DNA of 64,000 nucleotides from Perna viridis. Its lineage: Eukaryota. The notes beneath the pieces are model-generated. The model was given only the letters and a program-made list of their open reading frames with translations, was not told the origin of the DNA and made no database searches. The translations under genes and the position numbers were made by a program. Below, piece by piece: positions 9,001 through 63,887 of the stretch (the stretch's first letter is position 1; each line of letters opens with the position of its first letter). The DNA is taken from assembly GCA_037379345.1 (NCBI GenBank), contig CM074516.1, positions 13,640,001-13,704,000 on the forward strand, read 5' to 3'.

Positions 9001-9165
9001 ATAGTAATCAAGGGCATCAAGATTATAGCGGTAATCAAAAGAATGTAATCCAGGGACAAAGACTAGACATGGAAAACAGACATACACAACAAAGAACATG
9101 GAGTAACTGAAATCATACATACAAGATAACAAAAGCAAATGAGCAACTCGGACTCCACTAAAAAA
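9001..9165 (-). mobile_element. Family R repeat, truncated
   Basis: AGTAATCAAGGG...GAGCAACTCGGACTCCACTAAAAA. Confidence 0.85.
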
Positions 9166-9186
9166 ATGAAATAAATCAATATTCAA

Positions 9187-9346
9187 TTAAGAATTGGCTA
9201 TGATAAAAATTTTGTCTATTGAAAAATAACATAAATTTTCCATGTGCATATTTTGTTTATTGCACTTCGCCCAAAAACAATATGCACATGGAAAATTTAT
9301 GTTGTTATTTTTCAATAGACAAATTTTTATCATAGACAATTCTTAA
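9187..9346. repeat. Near-perfect long inverted repeat (collapsed palindromic element)
   Basis: TTAAGAATTG.CTATGATAAAAATTT...CCATGTGCATATT / AATATGCACATGG...TTTTTATCATAGACAATTCTTAA, ~65-bp arms. Confidence 0.9.
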
Positions 9347-12300
9347 ATAAATTTTAATACATATTTTTATGTTTAAACATGAGAAAAGTAGCTCTGAATT
9401 TAACTGAATAAGGTCGTGTCAATATTGTTTTTATCCATTGAGATATAACAAAATTATTTTCACCAATCAGATTACAGTATTTATCTCAAATTATTATTTT
9501 TTTCTTTTTTTTTTTTTTTTTGCCTATCACATAAAATCCGCTTGGTAGTCCATCAGCACTCATTTATTCGAGAGAGACTCTTAATCTTCCTTAATACAGG
9601 CGAAAATATTGGATGCAAGCAATACTCAAGAGATAGAAAGGTTAACGCTATATTTTCATTCATGTAATTTTTTCCTTTTCCAACTATCCATCACAGCTGT
9701 TAATGGCCAAAACCTTATTTCTAAAGCAATCAACATTTACTGAGTTATAAATGGATATGCAACATGAACTCAGTCACGTGCTATTTCGATGCATATTCAG
9801 CATACGACTAAGAATACCGAACAAAGCCCTTGTTTACTTGTACATAAATGTTTTTAAGAATGAAAGGAGGAATACTTTAGTGATAATTTGTGTTAATTCC
9901 GATGATTTAAAATACATTTATTGTAAGTATTAGTAATGTTGGTATTTCAGACAGTATCAACACGTCTGGAGACCATACATTTTCAGTATTCTACTACCTC
10001 ACATGTAGTTGAGTTATGAATTTCATGACCAATTTCTTTTCTAATGTTATGTTTTGTTTTGTTGTTGTTGATTTCAGTATTGTTTTTTATTTGTTCAGGG
10101 AACACTTAGTATGTACTGATATGTTCAAATACTTAACACATTACGATATTGGACCACTTGTCTTCAAATCCATAGCAATTCTTTTACATGAAGAATGTTA
10201 GCATACTAAAAAGGGGAGAAAGTGGAAATGTAGAATGGGTAAACAGCTCTGCCATAATGTTTCGACCGAAAGCAGTCAAAATATCTTCGAATTTGACTTC
10301 GTCTTTTGAAACAAATTAGCAAAGAGAAGTAAAATTCCAACCCGAAAAACTGGTTTATGGTCCTGCTGGAGCAATGGACAAGAGTATCCCTTAAATCAAG
10401 TCATTCGCTGTAAATGGAGTTGCGGAAAGTGCAATTCGGTAATTATTAGTGTGAAAATGCTTTAAGCATCCAAGACAAATATTCCATTTCCAAATGAGAC
10501 CTCCAACCATCGTGTCGTGTGTTCATGATGGACGTCCCTTTGAAAAATACTTGCTAAAATGTCTTGTATCCCGTAAATAACAAAAAATGTCTATTGGCTA
10601 TTGCTATTTATGGAAATTTTTAAAACTACTAATGTACTACCTACGGTAAAACCTTCCGTAAACTACCCAAAATCAACCGGAATCCTAACCAAACCAGCCT
10701 TCATCTGTACAAACCGAACACCATCCTAAAGCAAACAAATACTACAGTTCAAAAGGGCTTCGATTTAGACAGATTATACCGTTTTTAATTTAATAATCGA
10801 TTTCGCAAAAGTAAATATAAAGTTGATCACAACCTAAAATAGAATTGTGACGTCATAATTTTCGATCGATCAATTTCTGTACCACTATACTGTAACGCTG
10901 GTCAAAACAGAAGCATTTTTGACTTTTCTATTGGTTTGGCTTAATATGTGTTCGGTTTACAATGTTAAACATTACAACTCATAAAAATTGGTATAAAGTG
11001 AATAAAAAGTGTCTTGTTTAGATGGGATTTCGAAATAGGTATGATTGAGTCGGTTTTGACAGGTCTGATGGTTATAGACAGGTTTGAGTGAGTGACAGAT
11101 AAACGGCAATTCACACCATTCAAAATCCAAAAAATATTACATTTTCATTGATGTTTCTACAAATCATAAACGTATATCTATATCCCCGTAATTCCAATTC
11201 AAGAACCATCTTTTCGTTTTATTGTATCGTAAATCATTAAGCAATTCATGGGAACTGTAATATCTGATGCGCTAATAGGAAAATTAAATCGAATCATTGA
11301 AGATAAATTGTCTTCCCATGTCAATTCTAGAATACTTCCAAAAATTAAACTAACATATGACTTGATTTAGTTTCAAGCTTTTTTACTTTAAAATTAAACA
11401 GTGGTAAGATCAATTTAAAAGTTGGCATTTGCTGAATATGACCTACGGCATTACACATGTAAACCTTCTGATGCTTGTAATCTTGTCTCCAAACTGTTTG
11501 TGACCGCCGAGAAATTTGACATGTTTTTGGTAGGTGTGTTATTCTTGGCGTGTACAATATGTGTTGTCCATCCCCGTTTGCTCGACCAATACGTCCTCGT
11601 TCTGACATTTTTTAGCTTCCAATAAAGTTTGACCAAAACATTGTTTCTAATGTAATAACTTTTGCTTTGTTTCGTTTTTCTCCTTTTATTTGTCAAATTT
11701 TACATCATCTAGGAAAGGCCATGAAAGAAACAATACAATTGGAAATCAATGGAGTTAGATTGTATTTCAATGCATGGATAGTCCTACTAAGCTGGTTTTC
11801 TGTTGTCCATTTGCAAATTTGTTTATAAATAAGCAAAAATGCCAAGGAAGACAATTTGTGTATATTATGTTTGGTACATTGTCTAAAAGGACTAAACTTT
11901 TGATTTTTACAATTTGAAAACAGGTGGGGTTAAAATAAACCAGGTCACAAATTATTTTGCTTCAGCTAGGTGTATTGCTTTCAAGGAAGAAACATTAACT
12001 ACCAAAAACAAATAAAAATACAAAAAAACATTAGTTCTGAAAAAAGTAGGACCTACAAACTGATCAATCATCTAATACATCAACACTCATTTCTCAATCG
12101 ACTTTCCATCTTCCTTTCACTCCTAACGTAACATGACACGGCACTGGCTTTTCTTTTACACACTTTCTTTGATGAAGTGTAATGGATTTCTCTCGAGTAA
12201 ACAAATTGCCAAGATTACAAAAGGCATACTTTTTAGAGTGATGGACAAAACGATATCAAAACGTGGCAGACATTATCAACAAAGTGGTCAACCTATATAT

Positions 12301-16800: not shown

Positions 16801-18959
16801 GCTTTTATGTCAATAAAGATATCAACTAAAATATTTAAAAGAGTTCAGCGGGTTTTTTTTCGTATCACACATGCACATGTCATAAAAACCCAAAGACACC
16901 CACATTTATTCGATGTTATATATTGGTCAATTCAGCGTTATGGTATGTGATATGGGAAAATCCATATAATATGTTGAAACCTATTAAACCGTTAGTCATG
17001 TGACATTGTTATGGATTTTCGTCTGTTTTTCTTCGGTTACAGACGAATTAAATTTAGCTTATACCACTAATGTAGAAAACCTCTATGCTTTACAAGTGTA
17101 TTGTAATTCTTTCAATTCTAATCACAAAAAAATGAAAATACATTTCAACTTTTCATAATGACCCTCATTCAGTGAAATCGACATTGCAAAAGGCGGCATT
17201 CAATCGAATACGTGACACAGTTGTCCATTTCAATATTCAAAGTAAACAAAGGCTACTATTTGCCATTTTTCTTTTTCAAATTCATGTTCTAAATATTCGA
17301 TGTCGAAAATCAAAAAGAAAAACAGAACAAAAATCCGTTTCATACCCTTTCAATTGGCTCAATATTGTATGATGAGCCGATGGCTGATAGGTTTATTTAC
17401 GATACTGAGAATATAAACTAGTAGATGAAATTGTGTGTCACCGCAGAGGCTGTATACAATGAACAACTAATTATAATGCACGCAAAATATTACGACATGT
17501 ATATGAATTAGACCGGAATGTTTATAGCGTATTTTTTAAGAATCAGTCGTAACGGTTATAAAAATCAGACAGGAGGTGATTCATGTATATCAAAAACCTA
17601 CCAAATTCACTTTTTTTGTTCAGAATCGGCCACAAACCATATAACCAGTCATAGTTTTTCATCTGGTTATTGCACTGTTAATATAAACGTCATATAAAAT
17701 GTGTATGAAATTCACACATTGCAAGAGTTATTGTCCTTGATTTGGTTGATATGTGTGGGAGGTTAATGAATGTTTTTTTTTCTCAAAAAACGCAGATTTG
17801 AATACGGAGAGGCCCATCGAAACGTGAAAATATAGCATACGTGCACATGTATGTAGACCGGAAAAAGATTGTAAGTTCGGTAGATTTTTCTAAACCACAA
17901 ATTACCTCTACCATAGACATACCAATTTATATGGACCGGCACTTAACTCCTATATGTTGTTGTTTCAGTGTTTTATTATTATCGTCAAGGGTGGTCTTTT
18001 ATAGTAGACTACTATTAAAATCCTGGGGGTAGAGAACTGCGTGCTGAATAATACCCTATGACATGACGGCCAGTCGCAAAATCAAAATACCACCGAAGTA
18101 ATTAAAGTGATGTAAACACAAACCTTTCGATTAAAATCCTTTATTCCAAAATTGTATTATGCGTCTAGTCAGACATTTATACTGGGGTATAAATTGCATT
18201 ATCTTCAAAATTGAAATGATTACGCATTTTTGTGGCGTCTTACTATGGTTTAATTGTATATCACAAATTAATATGCAGTGATGCATCAGATCCTTTATGG
18301 GTATTCGAAATTAATATCAACTTAATGAAATAAATAGTATAGAAAAGATGCCGGTTTAACTTATCAAAAAACTGTTATAAGTATCAAGTCAAGAAATGTA
18401 TAACTGTGCTGGTGAAACTGCTAACTTGATGACCTTTGGTCTTGACATTTTTTAAACTACTTATGGAATCAATATTTAATACATTGAGGCAGAAAGAATT
18501 CATATGTGATTTTTACGAAAATTAATTTAGAGCAAAAACTAAGACATTAAAAAATCGGCAATTGATTGGGTGTGCGTATGCATCTTATATTAATCTGGTT
18601 CCCTGGTCAATATCATAAGCGACCCTAGGATCGCTAAAATATAGACTCAGGTCACCATCGACGGATATGCAAAATAAATGGGTAAATTGCTGCTTATGAA
18701 ATAAAATAAAAACAAAGATGAGACTATCTGAATTAACTTTATAATTGCGCATTTATATCAAAAGATGATATAAGTAATTTGGAAAAAAATATTTTAACGT
18801 ATTTTCCTTAAATTTGAATATTGGAACGTATAAAAGTAAATAAAATAACGTCATATTCGCTCAGCCAATCAATAGACAGAGGACGTCATTGGGTTACATT
18901 TGAGAGAAACTTGTGGAACGAAAATATTACCCGGGTTTCCAGGTTACACCTTAAATGTG

Positions 18960-19468
18960 TTTGCTTGTTTGTTGGGGTTTAACGTCCGAGCAGCAATATT
19001 TCAGCTATATTCAGACGATGAACATGAAATTGATGATAAAATGAACATGAAATCATGATGAAATGAAAAAAAGATGGGACACAAGGACAATGGGGTCGAC
19101 AAATTTTGATTGCCACTGGAAATAGGGAGAGGTGGGTACGGTCGGGCAATTTAGCCTCCTGTGGCGGAGCACTATGGTTCCTACTCCGGGAGAATACCAC
19201 AGTAGGGTTCTTTAACGTGCGAGGAACGTGGCATCTTTCCCAACACGGTGCACCACTATGGTTTGCGGTCAGGTTTTCAGCCTGACAACCCCAGCATGTA
19301 ACACGCCAGGGGTACCCCATTCAACCACCTGGGGCACACATCCCAGTTACTCTGGGGGCAGAGCGCCCTAGCCCCCGGCTAGGGTTCTGAGCACTATTTA
19401 GTCGCCTTTTACGACAAGCTTAGCGCTGCTGCAAGCCTATTCTTTTAACACCCGGACCTGCACGGGTG
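18960..19468 (-). mobile_element. SINE-like retroposon, family K copy 1 (pseudoknot head, Nin/Deu-like middle motif, AAAC tail)
   Basis: 11-bp TSD CCTTAAATGTG (18949-18959 / 19469-19479); highly similar to 50412-50960; minus-strand 3' end GGACGTTAAACCCCAACAAAC... Confidence 0.92.
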
Positions 19469-20595
19469 CCTTAAATGTGCCTTTTTTCATAAAACTGCTA
19501 CATGAACATACAATTGCAGAAAGTATACTATATGTAAAGAACTGTATTTACGTTGTAATAAAGTCATATTCAGGCGAAAAATTTCAAATTTCAGATTAAT
19601 ATTTTTTTTTTTATAAATCGTAGTGTAAATCGGGATCTTTAAATGGAAAAGGGGAAATATATTGTGGTCAGTGAATAGGGTAAATGGAAGTTTACACCAT
19701 AATGAGGTTGTATCTGATAATATGATGAATGTGAAACCTTTTAACGCTCCCGAAGAAACATTAATTAAAAACAACTTTGATAATTTTGTCAGCTCTCTCC
19801 CCAGATTTGATATATTATATTTATAACCTTCAAATGTGGTAATTTTTGCACTTATATGTCCTAGCGTATTATACTTATTGTCATAGTCTGATATGTCTAT
19901 TGGCAGAAATGTCCGGCATTCATAAGGACTTATTGATTTTCATGGTCCGAAATGTCTTTGGGTCGCATTGTCCGGCACGGATAAACATTATGGTTCTTGT
20001 AATTTAAAATAGTTCTTTTATTCAACTTAGTTTTGCTTCATTCTGTGTCGATTTATATCGTTTAATTATGTTTTTATTATGATTTGATTTATTTTATCGT
20101 ATTGATTCGTTTCGATTCTTTCTTTTATCGATTACTTTCGTTTCGTTTTCGTTTCGCGATTTTTATGACCCGAGAATTATGGGTAATATTGACTACGTAA
20201 TTTTCGTAAACATCCGGGCGCCATACTGCAGACTATAAGGTCAACCCTATCTTGGAAAAGCTATGATTCGATTTGTATTTAATTATTGAAACTAGCAAAT
20301 ATTTTCCGAGACTGGTTTGGCTCTCAATCGCACATATACAAGTATACGCAAATGAAGCTGCCATTATGCTGTTTTTGAGCTCCTGAAAATGCAGGAACAA
20401 ACCGGATATTGATGCTTTTTCTTGCCATAAGTATATGGAACCAAGTTGATAATACAACCATAAACGCTCCCTTCGGGAGCGTATTAAACAATTGTCTCAA
20501 TAATCCAATTGCAAATTTGTGGTTATTTTAATTATTAGTCATAATTTGAGTTTTTTTAACTAAACAGCTAAAGGAAAGTATTGCTATTGTCGGAA

Positions 20596-49200: not shown

Positions 49201-50411
49201 GGACGTTAAATGTACATGTACATGTATATTGATCTGATAATCTGTATACATTTACACTTTATCCGTACCTTTAAAAGGTTATTAAAAGATTAATACAGGA
49301 TTAACCCGCTTTTAATCATTCAAAGGACAAATTTGGTTTTAGGGTGATATAAACGTAAATCGTAACCCTTGCCAAGGGTGAAGCTCTAATTCTTGACAAT
49401 AGCTTTACAGATTTTAGCTTGAAGGACATAAAATTAATGTTATTATGTCTACCAATAATCCAGCGAATTATTTCAATGCATTCATCTGGAATGTTCGAAC
49501 TTTTGACTAGTCATTTGGCCCTTCAAGTATCGGTAGAGACATTTGTAGGACAAAACAAAAATACGAAGGCTTGATTCCGGTATGATTTTCATGACATTTA
49601 GTTATATAAACTATAAAAAACGAATGTTTAACAGAACACCACTTCCATTTATCAAATGCAGTCATATTTCTTTCCGATAAAATAATATAACTTCAAACTT
49701 GAAACCGTTGCCTGGGGACTTGAATTTGCCTTCTATTCAATGCATTTCCTGACGATTGGAGTAGTGCAGTACAACTTTTCAAAGCTAAGTACAGAAATGT
49801 CACGTGGAAATGTAAATGAAATAAATATATTTTCTCTGATATTTCCAACATGCTATCTAGTCAAAAGACAAACATATAAAGTTACAACGTTTAAATTTAA
49901 GCCATAACACCTCTAACAAGATTGCGACATATCTGATCACTCTTTTGCAATCCTTATTGTTAATTATTTTCAATTTGTGCTTAGTTCTTGGTACCTGAAG
50001 GGTATCAATTCCTAAGTACCGTGCTACAAAGCGATTTATCAATGCGTGTAACAATTAAATATTAGCTTCTAAAATTGCAATCTCTGCCATTTATATCTCA
50101 ATCATGATCCGGTTTCTGATAGATGTCGTAAACTTCCGCTAACATCTGCACAGTTTGATTAACTAATTAAACATATTGTAATCGATACGTTAAAATTACT
50201 GATTAGTGACTATGTTAGAAGCAGAAGAAATCAGACTAAATTGATTTCTTTGCGAAAGAATCATGCAGGAATCCGGTCTTTGAGAAATTGACGTGATATG
50301 GCCCATAACTCGCGTATCACATCATGTTAGACTGAGTACGTTTGTAGTATTTTGTTTACCGTTTTAAGTAGCACATCAACTAAGAATCATGCAGATATGA
50401 TTCATTGTTGG

Positions 50412-50960
50412 TTTTGTTTGTTTGTTTGTTGGGGTTTAACGTCCGAGCAGCAATATTTCAGCTATATTCAGACGATGAACATGAAATGGATGATAAAATG
50501 AACATGAAATGATGATGAAATGAAAAAGGGATGGGACACAAGGCCAATGGGGTCGACAAATTTTGATTGCCACTGGAAATAGGGAGAGATGGGTATGGTC
50601 GGGCAATTTAGCCTCCTGTGGCGGAGCCCTATGGTTCCTCCTACGGGAGAATACCACAGTAGGGTTCTTAACGTGCGAGGAACGTGGCATCTTTCCCAAC
50701 ACGGTGCACCACCATGGTTTGCGGTCAGGTTTTCCGTATTATAGCCTGACAACTCCAGTATGTAACACACCAGGGGTACCCCATTCCACCACCTGGGCAC
50801 ACAACCCAGTTGCTCTGTGGGCAGGGCGCCCTAGCCCCCGGCTAAGGTTCTGAGCAATATTTAGTCGCCTTTTACGACAAGCTTAGCGCTGCTGCAGGCC
50901 TATTCTTTTGACACCCGGACCTGCACGGGGCTTCTTTTGACACCCGGACCTTCACGGGGC
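50412..50960 (-). mobile_element. SINE-like retroposon, family K copy 2 (GRIK intron 1, antisense) with a 29-nt duplicated 5' end
   Basis: 11-bp TSD TTCATTGTTGG (50401-50411 / 50961-50971); (AAAC)n tail; 50932-50960 duplicates 50903-50931. Confidence 0.92.
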
Positions 50961-50984
50961 TTCATTGTTGGAAAGCTTACGATA

Positions 50985-53001: not shown

Positions 53002-53555
53002 AAAATCTGTATCACATGCTATATAAAACCAAGACCCTATATAACCCCAAGGGCCACAAGCCTGAGGGCGACATAGGTCGAGGGTTCGTACGGCATTAAA
53101 TACAGATTTGGCATGTCATGTTCGTTACACTTAATCATTTATTTTAATGTCTAAAATACTAAATGTGTGTTCCGAGTAACGGTGCGATACAGGGCATGTG
53201 TTATAAATGCAGGCTTAAAGGTGTGATTTAGGTTATGCGATATACATGTAGGCCAGGGGTATGCGATATAAACTAAATATTGCATGTCAAAATCTGTATG
53301 ATATGCTGTATCAACCCGAGACTCCTATATCAACCAAAGGGCCACCGGGCCTCGGGTGATATAGGTCGAGGGTTGATACAGCATGCGATACAGATTTTGA
53401 CATGTCATGTTCATAATATCACATATTTTAACCATACTTCGGGTATGGCCAGTGAAGGAGTGCGATATAGGTATGCGATATAGGTCTAGGTATGTGATAT
53501 AGGGTATGCTATGTAGGTCTAGAGTTGTGATATAGGGTGTGCGATATAGGGTGTA
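53002..53555. repeat. Two tandem palindromic hairpin units plus GTATGCGATATAGG short repeats
   Basis: AAATCTGTAT...GGGCCAC..GGCCTCGGG...ATACAGATTT at 53002-53112 and 53281-53406; short repeats at 53455-53555. Confidence 0.8.
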
Positions 53556-56993: not shown

Positions 56994-57353
56994 TTGAAGT
57001 AGAGGTTTTTCAATACTGTTTTGATGTTGTGTCGAGCCCAGTACAAATGACGAGCCGAGGATTTCCAAAAACCTGCCGTGCATGGCATGATGGTTTCAAC
57101 GATTTGCCATTAACTTTGGCCTTTTCTCCTCACAAATACCGGTATCTTACTCTTTCTCAAACCAGAATAGAATAAATTGTGAATCCTCGCAATAGTACTA
57201 GTATGAAAATATACGAAAACGAACTAAATGTTCACAATCGGGATTGCCAAATGAGATTATTAAATTATTCACTAGTAAAGTTGCCAGATGTTTATGTAAG
57301 ATATTTTCGTAGTTGCCTTTTTTATTATTCATCAATGTCATTTATTTTTGCAG

Positions 57354-57605
57354 TTTGTAAACTGATAAAAAATGGAGTTGCAGGCATTTTTGGACCATCA
57401 TCACAAGTTTCATCAGGCCACGTCCAGTCCATTTGTAATGCTTTATCCATTCCACATGTTCAGACATTTTGGGATGCGAGAGAATCGAGAGACTATTTTT
57501 CTATTAGCTTATATCCACATTATGAAGTATTAGGCAAAGCCTATGTTGATTTGATTAAATATTGGAAATGGTCTACTTTTACAATTATATACGAAGACAA
57601 CGATG
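57354..57605 (+). CDS. GRIK-like coding exon 3 (VCKLIKNGVAGIFGPSS...VQSICNALSIPHVQT...YEDND)
   Basis: tttttgcag| acceptor, G|gtaagt donor, 252 nt; GVAxIFGP and VQSICNALxIPHxQT are characteristic GluK ATD motifs. Confidence 0.96.
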
Positions 57606-57953
57606 GTAAGTTCATTCTTGTATAGGTCAATTAGGGTCAAAGTCATAAATCAATGTCAAAGTTCAGGTGTGAATGGTAACTATCTTACATTAACAATTTT
57701 ACACATTTTTATGATCATAAAATTTAGAAAATTGCCAGTGTTTTGTGAAGTGCTTATTTTATAGAACGAAGATACATGTACTATCGCCTAATCTTAGGCA
57801 ATTATTGAAAGTGATGTTGATGCCTAATTTGTCATGCGCATTGTTTAAATTTCGCATAGTACATGTATATTTTAGCCTTAATTATATATATTAGAATATC
57901 TCATAACGTGCAATCGGCAATTCATTTAAGATCTAAAACTTTATTTTCAATAG

Positions 57954-58135: not shown

Positions 58136-58219
58136 GTAGGATACCCTTTAAACAGGGATAGTCTTCTAAAAGGGAGCATGCGTATTGCAAGTTTGTCTCT
58201 GTCAGTTTTTGCGTACAGA

Positions 58220-59207
58220 TATGGAAGTCTATTTCTGTAATCAAGATAAATAAAAGTCGCGAAAAATTATCTCGAAAAGTCGTGATAATTGGTGTATTTT
58301 GTCGACATAAATGACAATTTCATCTCAAAAAGTCACGATAATTTTTCGTGATAGTTAAGATTATTATGTCGACTGTTCGAGTTAATTATCAGGACTTACA
58401 CAGAGTCATGCCAATATGTAGCTTCCACATAAATATTTTCGCTGTAGCTTTTTACCAAAATCACGACATTACACTAATTTTTGTGACAAAATGGAGACAA
58501 GTTATTTCAACTTGTGAACGTATTGATATCTGCCGACATAAACTATCGCAATTTTATAGTTTAAAGTTATGAAAACGCCAAGTAGTGTCAGTTACAAAAT
58601 GTATACATTGTGATAAATCATATTGATTTTTTTGTGAAATAATTTGAATTGTTGACATAATATTTCGACGAACGTGTAATTTCGTGATGGGTTATCGTAA
58701 CTTACCAAGAAAAACTAGCTTTTGTCGAGATTTAAAGTCAATAAGTCAAGTTATTTCACGAAAAAGTCAACATAATATATCGTAATTCACATGTTTTGTT
58801 GTTGACACTACTTGGCATTTTCACAACTTTAAATTCTCAGATTGCGATAGTTTATGTCGACAAATATCTCAGACATCATAACTTTTACGACCAGTTGAGA
58901 TGATAAATCACGATTTGTCATGATAATTAGCACATAAAGTCGTTGTATTAGTATAAAGTTGTCACATCTTATCGTGAAAATATTTTATGTCAAAGGCATA
59001 AGTTGTCGTCGGTTCCCTTATAGTCGCGATAATTCATGTTATTATATCGAACGGTCGACATAATTATCTTAACTATTGCGAAAAATTATCGTGACTTTTT
59101 GAGATAAAATCGTCATTTACGTCGACAAAATACCCAAATTATCACGACTTTTCTAGATAATTTTTCGCGACATTTACTTATCACGATGACAGAAATAGAC
59201 TTCCATA
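58220..59207. mobile_element. ~1 kb foldback non-autonomous DNA transposon (IS3EU-like termini) in GRIK intron 4
   Basis: TATGGAAGTCTATTTCTGT...ACAGAAATAGACTTCCATA termini, 6-bp TSD TACAGA, inverted similarity extending hundreds of bp inward. Confidence 0.85.
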
Positions 59208-59950
59208 TACAGATAAAAATCCGAAAAATCTTTTCTGCACATATTATTTTTATCTCCACGCTTCCAAAGAAAAAGAAAAAAAACCTTGTCCTTTAGTTAG
59301 ACGAGGATAAAAAGTATTCGAATTTGAAGATGTCCTTAAGTGAAAGAATCGGAGGTAGTTGCACGTCGTTACGACAAGGAATTCACTGATTCAGTTAAAT
59401 CCGGCTCCTTGATGATAACAAACATGTCCAGAACTGAACTAGGTACAAATGTACATGAAGCATTTTAAAAAAAAACTTTAAAATATAATGTTTGATGTCC
59501 CAACAAACTCATTAAAAATAATTCTCAAAATACGTTTTTTTAGTAAGAACATGATTGGCTGATATATATGACAAACTGTATTTCTACTTGAAACAAAAAA
59601 AAAAAAAAAAGAACGGCTTTGTTTTACATTTTCTAAATCCGGACCGGTGACGAAATTATAGGAAACAAATGTCAATGACTTATCCTCTTAAGTTGTAGAT
59701 TAGTTCTATTCGGAAATACCATTTGTCATGATGAATGTTTACCACTACACAACTTAAGCATTGACTTGCATTCTCCGTCAATTTTGTCATGGTGTTTTTG
59801 TAACAAAATTAAGACGAAACTGAAGTCAATTTCTTTTACCTGTGTACATATATATCTTTTGCATTCAAACCTACGATGCATTTTCTGTGAACACGATGAC
59901 TCGCTTCGATGTTTACGATATAGAATTATGATATAACTTATTATTTACAG

Positions 59951-60004: not shown

Positions 60005-60804
60005 GTAAGTTGTATTCAGGGTAGTCATAAATGATCCTGACAAAGTTTGGGCCACACACCCGTTTATTTAGGAAACATTTAATATACTTGTAGCGAATGT
60101 TTTTGGACTTTCGACATGAACATTTTAAGGTTAGACATTTTCTGTTACAGTTGCAGTCATATGCATGCAGGCAGTCTTGGTTTACAGACCGATTTTTCTG
60201 ACATACTTGAATGTGCGTTATTTCTTCTAATGTCTGTTGATTATGCTCAAAGAAACCCATAAAGTTAATCCTATTACACCTATCACAGAACACTTACCAT
60301 AAGATATAATTGGTTAAGAACCATTAGAGAGTTAAATACAAAAAAAACCTTTAAGACGGTCTTACTTATAAAACCATGAAAAAGGAAATTAAAAAAAAAA
60401 AAAAAAACGAGAAAAAAAAGAATTTTGATTTACCGGGAAATTGTCCTAAGCACAAACAATACTTTTTATCTTAATCTTTGATGTTTTCATACTTGTAGCC
60501 AGTATGATCCATAATCCCCTAGTGCAAATTTGAATTCTTATTTCTCTTAGGACAAATTAGAATTCTAATTTACACTGTTTAAGATCCAGAGCAAATTGGA
60601 ATTCTAATTTATCCTAGGAGAAGTTACAATTTCAATGTGCCCTAATAGGATTCCGGATCTTACTGGATTCCAATATGCCCTAAGCTAAGATACGTTCAGA
60701 TGAATCGAAATATATTATCATTATTAAATATTACATGTCTATACTATAGTGATGCTTACAAATATTTTGTCACACTACAACAAATATACTAATTTGCATT
60801 TCAG

Positions 60805-60972: not shown

Positions 60973-62979
60973 GTAGGTAACAGTTATGATATTTTTTTCC
61001 TAAAATTTACAAATTGAATTCGAAGACGTTTCTTGATTAAATGACAATGGTTTCCCTTAAAAATAGAAGAAATCAAATCCGTAAAAATTTGGACTTAAGA
61101 CAAATCTCATGTCAATTGTGTTATGCGTTGTTGAAAAGTATATTTTTTAAAGTATTTTATATGCAAGACATTGAATTAGAGCTCGTTTTATAACTGCTAC
61201 AACCTGCCCAAATATAGCGCTTACTTTCAATCCTCGTTAGATAGAATTTTATGACTGTCCTGTCCAAATAAACTATCTTATTTAAAATTTGTGGTGTAAT
61301 TCAGATATTTTCAAGTTGGTTTAGAAGTTCCAAATGTCCCGTGTAAAATCTGCCTATGATGTCCATGTTAAGAGCATGAGATACAGCCTAAAACCGAGGC
61401 ACTTTCCTCACTTATATATGTATTAACGTCTGTGACATCTAAGTTATTTAAATAAACTTTCTTAAAACGTTCATTGAAAGTAAACGGTTAATGCGGGCAG
61501 ATTGTATAAATTCCATTTTATTTCTTGCTGCTTCTGGACAAACAAATAGAACAGCTATCTTAGTCTTTACAACAAGACAAACAGCATGGAGGTATTATAT
61601 TTGTTGTAAATCTGTAACGTTTGCTTGCTCCTCATTCAAACACGAAAATTCATCAAGTTATTCAACTACTGTTACGTCTGGATACTAGTTTGAGGAAACG
61701 TGGGCCATTCGGGGAACAGTTGACAGGATAAAGGGAGATAGGAAAGATGGGGCAACAGAAAGGGTGGGAAGAAAAGAAGAAATGGGGCGGGAGAAAAGAG
61801 AGAAGGGTGGGAGAAAGAAGAAAGGTATCCCTGTCCATCCCGTCATACGGCAGAACCTATTTTATCGTACATATATAAAACAGAATGAACATTGCGTTTG
61901 TTTTGACGCTCCTTCAATGTAGGAATGGTTCATGCATCTTTATGAAAAATAACTACAACCAATTAATCAATACTGTCTACCATTTAGATTTCTAAGTTAT
62001 CGGAGAATGTAAAAAAGTTTTCAATTTTGATAACACTACATATTATCGTACCTGAAACATTATGATGAAGTGGTTTTCAAATCAATTTGTTTGTAGCATT
62101 TTAACTTATCTTTTGGGCTCGGTAATGACATTTTCTAAGCTTTCATTATTTTTGTCTGTGATCACAAATGTTAATGTTGTCCTCTATGCATTTTTCTCAA
62201 CATTAATCAATTTTCTAGATACATATTACCGCCATTAATAATGAGAATGAATGAGGAATTGCGTTTATCAAATTGGAATAAGACATTTCAGAGGCATTCT
62301 TTACTAACGTTACAAAGTTTACATATTAATATTGGCTCGTCTGAAATAAGCAAAATGTAATATTTCAATTTTCTTTATATCCACAAAGTGATTTACACGA
62401 TGCTAAAGTATGGTATTTGGTAAAGTGTTCATTTCAATTTTTAACCAACATACATAAATATACTTACCGAAAAAAAAAAGATTGCTTATTTGGATTGGAT
62501 CAATACCATGGTTGTCTGTTTCCAAATAATTTAATTTTAAGAGGAACAAGTTTTCTGATTGGATAAATATTTTTGTCCATTATATCTTCGACCAAATTTT
62601 GTAATGCGACTGTGATGTCATCAACTTTTTTTTTATTATTTAATCGTTAAATTTTGATACTGAAATTAGGTTATATGTAATGACTGTTATACTTGTAATT
62701 GTTTCTGCTTTTTGAAATAACATCAATGCGAATTCGAAGCAAGTCATTTAGTTTGCACCACGTGATTGGGGTTATTCCTTCATAGACAGAAACAATTATA
62801 AGTCATTCCTTAATTAGGCGGCATTTTGATTATGCTCACATGATTCTTCATGGCTACATGTGTATATACATACAAGATATGACAGCTTTGTTTCCAACAA
62901 TGCATATATAGGTCTTTCGAAATTCTTTATGTACAATGTGTACATGTATGTAATTTGTGTCAATTTTACTTATTTTCAG

Positions 62980-63135
62980 ACAGACGTAGCTTTAATGTAT
63001 GATGGTGTTTTTCTGGCTGCTCTGGCCCTACATGAAGTTGGCAAAGCTAAAGTGGTCACAACAGACAAGGAATTATCTTGTTCCAAGTCAAAATCATGGG
63101 CTGACGGTATCAGCGTCCTCAATTACATGAAGACG
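62980..63135 (+). CDS. GRIK-like coding exon 7 (TDVALMYDGVFLAALAL...LSCSKSKSWADGISVLNYMKT)
   Basis: ttttcag| acceptor, ACG|gtaggt donor, 156 nt; ALMYD and C....W.xG..L.NYMK motifs. Confidence 0.95.
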
Positions 63136-63887
63136 GTAGGTTTGCCTGAGCAATTTACCTTTGTTACTTTATCAAGCTACGAACAGCGTCAGACATTCAA
63201 AATTTACTTTAGACGCTGTAGCCAGCCCTCTCATAAAAGGCAAGAATCTTGTAAAGTCGAGGAATTGTGAACGATTTTACACGACGTTATCCGATCGTCA
63301 AACTGGGTTTGACTTGAATAATGTCAGAGAACTTCGAAAGTCTTGTCTGCAGCGGTTAGTATTACATATATAATAGAGGAAACGAACGACTGCCGCTGCG
63401 TGGAGCTATTGCTGTATGTATAGCATTAAATCTTTAGAGACCAATTTGCGAGAAGGTGACGAAATTTTGCATGGTGCACAATTCATCCGAATTTACATGT
63501 ATCTTATAGATACTATGGGTTGATGTTTATTAATCTACCAAAACATTTTCTACATTAAGCATAAAATACGAATACTGATAGAACATCTCTGTAAATGTTA
63601 GTTGTTCCTATAAAATGCTTTTTTTTAATTGTTTTTGATAGATCAAGAAAAGAAATAAAATTACTGCGTTTAAACAACGATTTTGCTTGACATAAATTTG
63701 CCCCAATTTCTTGTTTTCAACAATATAGTGCACATGATAAAATAACTGCCTCTTTCTTATTCATTTTTGCATGTGGTTAAATTAACTAGAGAATCGATTT
63801 GCACTCAACACGAGTGTTTTACTAAAGCTGTCACCACTTTTTAATTAAAAGATAAGATAATATTATCATGTAATCTTTTGTGAATAG

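Follow-up and report, generated by a model that had tools for sequence, protein, structure and literature searches.

A predicted pseudoknot and invariant hairpin in the LP head of Perna viridis SINEs and in viral contigs: a candidate block to 5′-3′ exonucleases

An LP-headed SINE family in Perna viridis

The window (the whole stretch of 64,000 nt of Perna viridis DNA analysed here) carries on its minus strand two copies of a retroposon of ~520 bp, flanked by target site duplications (TSDs) and ending in a (CAAA)n tail, which are 93% identical to each other across 517 bp. Copy 1 spans 18960..19468 (−), with the first bases CACCCG at 19468, the head module at 19390-19468 and an 11-bp TSD at 18949-18959 and 19469-19479. 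Copy 2 spans 50412..50931 (−; ~520 bp; 3′ end GGACGTTAAACCCC(AACA)n) and lies between an 11-bp 5′ TSD, ccaacaatgaa (50961..50971, −), and the same sequence as 3′ TSD (50401..50411, −). Within this TSD pair, the full head is preceded by a 29-bp partial duplicate of the 5′ head (50932..50960, −) with the loop variant UGAAGGUC. An earlier note on this DNA, made from the letters of the sequence, had both TSD-bounded copies start at the head motif; this is so for copy 1, where CACCCG adjoins the TSD, whereas in copy 2 the 29-bp duplicate intervenes. A partial head upstream of a full one was seen in 3 of 45 copies examined, and head duplications resembling that of the window, either tandem or partial, were also noticed at the 5′ ends of elements elsewhere (L105:1372-1521, L030 and L056). 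The longest reading frame in the SINE is 120 codons from stop to stop, and the element therefore has no coding capacity.

Exons with an ANF_receptor domain are located at 57176-57625 and 62830-63270 (+), and both SINE copies are antisense to them; in our own judgement, these exons resemble an ionotropic glutamate receptor. The window further contains long imperfect palindromes (58219-59208, 9159-9369, 53260-53425 and 60488-60677), probably MITE-like elements, and a second repeat family with copies near 334, 4371, 8996, 13658, 20593, 54897 and 56777.

The genome contains 5,235 occurrences of an exact 35-mer of the SINE head and none of the reversed control, and a DNA search of the genome yielded 4,597 candidates, 40 of which were scored. 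Variable TSDs, directly flanking the element, could be detected in 57 of the 79 full-length copies at fetched loci, 30 of these 79 having been chosen by best BLAST score, which biases the set toward full length. The TSD ends exactly at G1 in 28 of the 57 TSD-bearing copies and between −4 and +1 in 48 of them, and the 5′ boundary of the SINE is thus sharp, two bases ahead of stem S1 (described below). Among tail-bearing copies at loci selected on the hairpin only, 44 begin within the first 8 bases and 4 at positions 9-70. The upstream flanks of 74 full-length copies have no sequence in common, ARAGORN detected no tRNA in the SINE, and a single A-box-like site (at 141, with 1 mismatch) has no B box nearby. 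The tRNA-like head with A and B boxes that characterises tRNA-derived SINEs is therefore absent from this family. The proposal of the earlier note that a pseudoknot and a hairpin stand in place of a tRNA head is borne out, and the contrary outcome that it had named, a tRNA head upstream of most copies, finds no counterpart in any shared upstream sequence. A search of the Perna viridis genome for other LP-headed families or for an LP-headed autonomous LINE returned the same SINE family only.

The earlier note had also taken the module to be undescribed, which does not stand: the head corresponds to one of ~70 bp that Matetovici et al. (2016; PMC4758252) described in mollusc SINEs and in LINEs of the Nimb and RTE types and named LP, for 'LINE promoter'. 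According to that paper, this head is common to Nimb-17_LMi, I-3_DR, RTE-9_CPB and the pectinoid MESC SINEs and replaces tRNA heads; its authors proposed it as a promoter, likened it to the ribozyme-promoter of ingi/L1Tc and called experiments necessary. In a by-eye comparison, all blocks of our head match the 'Nimb-17 homology' segment of supplement 4 to PMC4758252, and the scallop head given there has the same block order and, by eye, loop-partner complementarity and GGCGACTAA. Like the LP-SINEs presented in that paper, the window element has, exactly at its 5′ end, a ~70-bp head that is not a tRNA head, together with TSDs and a short tandem-repeat tail with GGACGTTAAA; it differs from the scallop element in that its body contains no tRNA-derived segment. 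With a Nimb-17_LMi-type head, variable flanking TSDs, a tandem-repeat tail and no coding capacity, the window family is, judged by its sequence, a new LP-SINE member. The main text of PMC4758252 contains 0 occurrences of 'pseudoknot' and the paper apparently mentions no viral occurrence; among the matches listed in the openly accessible literature, no publication tied the LP head to a pseudoknot, an xrRNA or viruses. The sequence of the head is therefore already known as LP; its pseudoknot fold and its viral occurrence are apparently undescribed in the searchable literature.

Predicted fold of the head RNA and its compensatory changes

A model built from copy 1 recovered the head module of copy 2 at 50853..50931 (−) with 73.2 bits. 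The predicted fold of the head is best drawn as an H-type pseudoknot (S1 of 4 bp, L1 of 1 nt, S2 of 7 bp and an A-rich loop ending in AGAAUA) with a conserved hairpin behind it. In copy 2, stem S1 (CCCG/CGGG; 50914..50929, −; 50926-50929 paired with 50914-50917) encloses the 8-nt loop UGCAGGUC, in which the U at 50925 would form L1 and positions 50918-50924 (−) the 5′ strand of S2. The A-rich loop ending in AGAAU(A) (50901..50913, −) is predicted to cross the minor groove of S1 and would contact it there. It is followed by the 3′ strand of S2, GGCCUGCA (50893..50900, −), the pseudoknot partner of the loop. The remainder of the module (50853..50890, −) is predicted to consist of stem P3 (50884-50890 with 50853-50859), an internal loop and the invariant hairpin GUCG-UAAAAGG-CGAC followed by UAA (50861-50878, −). 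Among the members compared, the hairpin lies 9-19 nt 3′ of the pseudoknot strand. P3 (AGCGCUA/UAGUGCU) is a 7-bp stem with one mismatch in copy 2 and closes the internal loop beneath the GUCG/CGAC hairpin. The sequence and pairings that had been noted before at 50861-50931 (−) and 19398-19466 (−), including a G.U pair in copy 1, are as described, but the module does not end at 50861: it runs 8 nt further, to 50853, because of the P3 stem. Pairing of all 8 loop bases, likewise claimed, is present in this copy; across 18 family representatives the first loop U is paired in only 8, so it is more likely a 1-nt L1, leaving S2 with 7 bp rather than 8.

Covariation was assessed in an alignment of 19 representatives, chosen by eye, one per family, from ~130 hairpin matches, with decayed copies omitted and the pseudoknot registers set by hand. 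AGAAU is invariant in 19/19 of these sequences, S1 is 87.5% paired across its 4 columns, and both sides change between families in 7 of the 8 pseudoknot pairs; the lack of compensatory changes, which the earlier note had said would tell against it, is thus not what we observed. Double-change cells numbered 43, compared with 16.4 ± 3.4 after shuffling, and 0 of 500 shuffles reached 43; the number of pairs with double changes is by itself a weaker signal, reached by 29 of the 500. Sliding the S2 partner out of register lowered pairing from 86.8% to 26-54%. When partners were swapped among 23 members, the observed 160 of 184 pairs stood above both the mean (136.8) and the maximum (149) of 5,000 swaps, and for the 8 viral copies only, 60 of 64 pairs were observed against a maximum of 54 (14,833 swaps). 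P3 also follows its own partner (score 242 vs 164 ± 13, maximum 215), with just 2 bp in 3 of 7 viral members. By eye, the loop begins with UG in 20 of the 23 members.

Approximately 22 bases are invariant. Most of them belong to the 3′ hairpin, in which no covariation was seen, and this invariant core lies 50-70 nt away from the 5′ end. The hairpin served as search key, which makes its invariance partly circular; among true members, relaxed scans freeing its loop or its stem added a single variant of the loop and none of the stem. The distance from the start to the hairpin differs by tens of bases among families, and the A-rich loop carries insertions of 30-60 nt in some SINE families (L121, L136 and L211). 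The folding energy calculated without the pseudoknot was unremarkable (z 0.25 and −1.17) and is not informative. A search of Rfam with the window, the SINE element and nine viral loci returned no family, and the match to a characterised Rfam family that the earlier note had considered as an adverse result was therefore not obtained.

Within the genome, compensation is visible at loop position 4, where the partner is C in 12 of 37 G-loop copies vs 44 of 5,324 A-loop copies (hand count); this corresponds to one subfamily event, which CpG decay may colour. Loop position 3 gave a null result: of 289 variants, 2 carried a compensating second change. Where the third loop base differs, heads matched 236 times in forward and 53 times in reverse orientation, a skew that may be due to a tandem array on a later contig, the first 100 matches listed being balanced.

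Occurrence in retroelements and viruses, and HDV-like folds at other loci

The exact hairpin pattern was found in at least 122 metagenome stretches. Among the matches listed, grouping by downstream sequence revealed three large repeat families of at least 43, at least 33 and at least 18 members, plus small groups and singletons, some of the latter being single merely through short flanks. In one SINE group (L137, L149, L154 and L088), the LP module lies directly ahead of a tRNA-like head. GTDB contigs, which we infer to be animal DNA inside bacterial assemblies, contained 9 hairpin matches, five of them with the full pseudoknot. Other SINE families, and LINEs that encode an endonuclease, also carry the module at their 5′ ends. 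L213, with the full module, and L209, with the hairpin part only since the contig ends before the pseudoknot, both have a ~510-aa ORF and then an endonuclease ORF downstream and represent LINE 5′ ends with the module upstream of ORF1.

In viral contigs, the whole module was identified in 7 of the 9 first matches. Relaxed scans, which gave overlapping sets of 15, 8, 40 and 52 stretches, added a single member (L202); the remaining stretches lack the pseudoknot and were not accepted as members, and L065/L069 and L214, with the hairpin only, were treated as chance. The module is located on the coding strand in all six of the distinct small virus contigs, 6, 10, 23, 74, 99 and 198 nt past the stop codon of the last long frame, with the contig end 14-119 nt away. 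Four of these contigs (L064, L066, L068 and L202) encode an RdRp, L062, a contig seen in two samples, encodes a Peptidase_A21 tetravirus-type capsid, and the remaining one, with a 1,217-codon frame, is unclassified. L061 harbours a second copy of the module in tandem, with compensatory changes. The module is also present between genes of a large DNA virus (a 212,482-nt contig with NAD ligase), 215 nt before an ATG; the possibility that this match is the published HDV-like ribozyme of CIV was rejected, the sequence being different (8-kb locus searched).

Assembly chimeras are unlikely, since loop and partner differ in sequence from one viral copy to the next and none of these copies is joined to a SINE body. 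A module that RdRp-encoding viruses retain on their sense strand, with compensatory changes, almost certainly acts as RNA, and its location after the last stop codon, on the coding strand, in RNA viruses also argues for a job at the RNA level. The deep conservation suggested in the earlier note is supported by the presence of the module in other SINE families, LINEs, RNA virus contigs and a large DNA virus.

Folds of HDV-like topology were noticed at several other loci. An active I-group LINE of 6.07 kb (L352:1201-7271 and nine further loci, L353-L361; copies 98.6-99.8% identical) encodes an ORF1 of 491 aa and an ORF2 of 1,247 aa with endonuclease, RT and RNase H, and ends in a (CAAT)n tail; its head and tail differ from those of the LP-SINE. 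It starts sharply at a C run; by eye, the fold of its head fits an HDV-like topology, although position 1 is C instead of G, and Rfam has no match for it. A motif of HDV-like topology with the same L3 (UUGUCGU) and ACUAA segment is present at L366 and ~60 related phage loci, again without a match in Rfam. At L398:1201-1222 (−), the phage motif is located among tRNA genes, a context in which theta ribozymes lie. In a 112-kb viral contig (L364:1400-1560, −), a single candidate example, HDV-like P1/P3/L3 precede a proximal partner strand and a hairpin, GUCG/CGAC, that recalls the LP hairpin. A superfamily uniting the I-group LINE head and LP through the same proximal pseudoknot was considered and dropped, since the phage relatives show a distal P2 of HDV type.

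Candidate functions and comparison with known RNA systems

We consider it about an even chance (probability around 0.5) that the LP-head fold blocks the 5′-3′ exonucleases XRN1/XRN2. Among the three functions put forward in the earlier note (ribozyme, 5′-exonuclease block, RT or translation signal), the exonuclease block fits best because the module is also found at the start of viral 3′ UTRs: one explanation is needed for the 5′ end of a retroposon and for the start of a viral 3′ UTR, once in tandem, and this one covers both. The SINE would be carried by longer read-through transcripts, whose head would fold in cells into the predicted pseudoknot and hairpin and stall XRN1/XRN2; trimming back to the knot would then leave a protected, exact SINE 5′ end without a tRNA promoter, and a LINE reverse transcriptase would use the (CAAA)n tail. 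In viruses, the module may serve to produce a subgenomic 3′ RNA. The HDV-like fold in the same 5′ slot of the active LINE of this genome, which is devoid of LP, suggests that this slot is used for RNA processing. Several observations count against a roadblock. PMC10321173 describes ordinary frameshift pseudoknots of the H type as unable to stall Xrn1, also when a hairpin is added. Invariance without covariation in a hairpin so distant from the 5′ end is more suggestive of a catalytic core or a protein site than of a purely mechanical block; the insertions of 30-60 nt in the A-rich loop and the 2-bp P3 of 3/7 viral members also weigh against it, as does the fact that the search of this genome found no LP-headed autonomous LINE. 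The frequent G1, if a cap-derived untemplated base, could point to a capped Pol II start.

Alternatively, the module could cleave itself at or close to its 5′ end as a ribozyme of a kind not yet described, with the hairpin and internal loop as catalytic core, a reading that we regard as rather unlikely. The exact 5′-terminal position and the many invariant bases speak for it, and the GACUAA found at the base of the hairpin recurs as J4/2-like segment in the HDV-like head of the active LINE of the same genome. Ribozymes are present in UTRs of toti- and tombus-like viruses (PMC13725137), and the LP paper itself points to the ribozyme-promoter of ingi/L1Tc (PMC4758252). However, viral ribozymes as surveyed in PMC13725137 mostly occupy 5′ UTRs, precede ORFs or form tandem pairs, and a viral RNA cut where its 3′ UTR begins would lose its 3′ replication end. 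The LP module has neither HDV topology nor an Rfam ribozyme match, no base is conserved at the 5′ boundary across families, and the large-DNA-virus match differs from the published CIV ribozyme motif in the 8-kb locus searched. Were the head self-cleaving, it would represent a new ribozyme class; the broader scenario of such a class, in which the pseudoknot docks on the invariant internal-loop hairpin and which has moved among LINEs of the Nimb and RTE types, many SINEs without a promoter, a large DNA virus and several groups of RNA viruses, appears unlikely.

We are equally doubtful, or slightly more so, that the module, as a cap-independent translation enhancer or a signal for RT/RdRp recruitment, offers a platform to which a host factor, a ribosome or a polymerase binds, with the 5′ end set otherwise. 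Hairpin invariance without covariation fits a conserved protein partner, and the module is found upstream of LINE ORF1 (L209 and L213), 215 nt before the ATG in the large DNA virus and in tombus-like 3′ UTRs, where translation enhancers are common. It may also resemble the SELEX pseudoknot aptamers of HIV RT. Such a platform leaves the start of the SINE two bases before S1 unexplained, gives no reason for non-coding SINEs of many families to keep the module, even before a tRNA-like head (L137 and L149; PMC4758252), and would need partners shared by Nimb-like and RTE-like RTs and by several RdRp groups. The published hypothesis for LP, an internal Pol II promoter acting at the DNA level with the RNA fold incidental, seems to us very improbable: the 5′-terminal location in LINEs and SINEs and the replacement of tRNA heads (PMC4758252) agree with it, and a dimeric DNA-binding site could reside in the invariant inverted repeat, GTCG-N7-CGAC. 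Against it count the compensatory pseudoknot changes, the retention of the module on one strand in viruses that encode an RdRp and lack a DNA stage, and a start-to-hairpin spacing that varies by tens of bases between families. A dual promoter and RNA role, as in Pr77, is possible.

If the block of XRN1 is real, the LP head would add a new fold to the xrRNAs and be the first that animal retrotransposons use, as well as a part common to LINEs and RNA viruses; through it, the SINE would gain an exact, protected 5′ end out of host read-through with no Pol III promoter. In any case, the ten-year-old 'promoter' assignment is decidable on an 80-nt RNA, the natural covariants providing break-and-rescue pairs.

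Compared with known systems, the LP head shares with the HDV-like ribozymes of LINE 5′ ends, as presented for Pr77/L1TcRz (PMC3383444), a short module at the exact 5′ end, swapped among unrelated LINE 5′ UTRs, and a C-U-A-A after a hairpin. It differs from them in having no P3/L3, no nested double pseudoknot and no conserved first base: the P1, P2, P3/L3, P1.1, P4 and J4/2 cytosine of the HDV-like fold could not be assigned in LP, where the strand pairing after UAA directly precedes the hairpin and leaves no room for P3/L3/P1′. HDV-like ribozymes are known at the 5′ ends of further LINEs. The three-way junction and double pseudoknot of class 1/2 flavivirus xrRNAs are not found in LP either, which has a simple H-type pseudoknot plus a hairpin and no Rfam match. 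Class 3 xrRNAs of plant viruses, according to the features given in PMC12397905, resemble LP in an apical loop that forms a long pseudoknot with a 3′ strand, and in a conserved AG-containing junction before this strand; the nuclease stop at the base of the first stem in this class would be shared by LP as well. The coaxial P1/P2 with J1/2 bulge and the spare T-loop-like L2B of this class are absent from LP, which has a single short stem and a loop wholly used by S2 and L1.

The closest parallel is provided by the coremin xrRNAs, which have an obligatory second hairpin, tolerate loops of up to 8 nt, halt Xrn1 just before the first stem and occur as repeats in UTRs of tombus-like and dsRNA viruses, as reported in PMC10321173 and PMC10520033. 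Common to both are a 4-bp S1, a loop starting with YG, a 1-nt L1, an A-rich loop on S1, a pseudoknot to the spacer, a second hairpin behind, location in viral 3′ UTRs and repeats. The order of 4-bp first hairpin, spacer and second hairpin is thus found in the LP head, whereas the loop consensus and spacer sequence are not, and a 7-bp S2 follows the spacer. In the two coremin types as described, xrRNA-C and the Watson-Crick type xrRNA-WCC, S2 has 2-3 bp instead of 7; the loop consensus is YGAD or YGNNAD, of which LP loops of 8-9 nt retain the first YG alone; and hp2 is conserved in structure only, whereas the downstream hairpin of LP is invariant in sequence. The LP head, which unlike coremin xrRNAs is found in animal retrotransposons, is on these features not a coremin xrRNA member. 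By analogy, the genomic 5′ boundary of the SINE fits an Xrn1 stop of the coremin type, just before the first stem.
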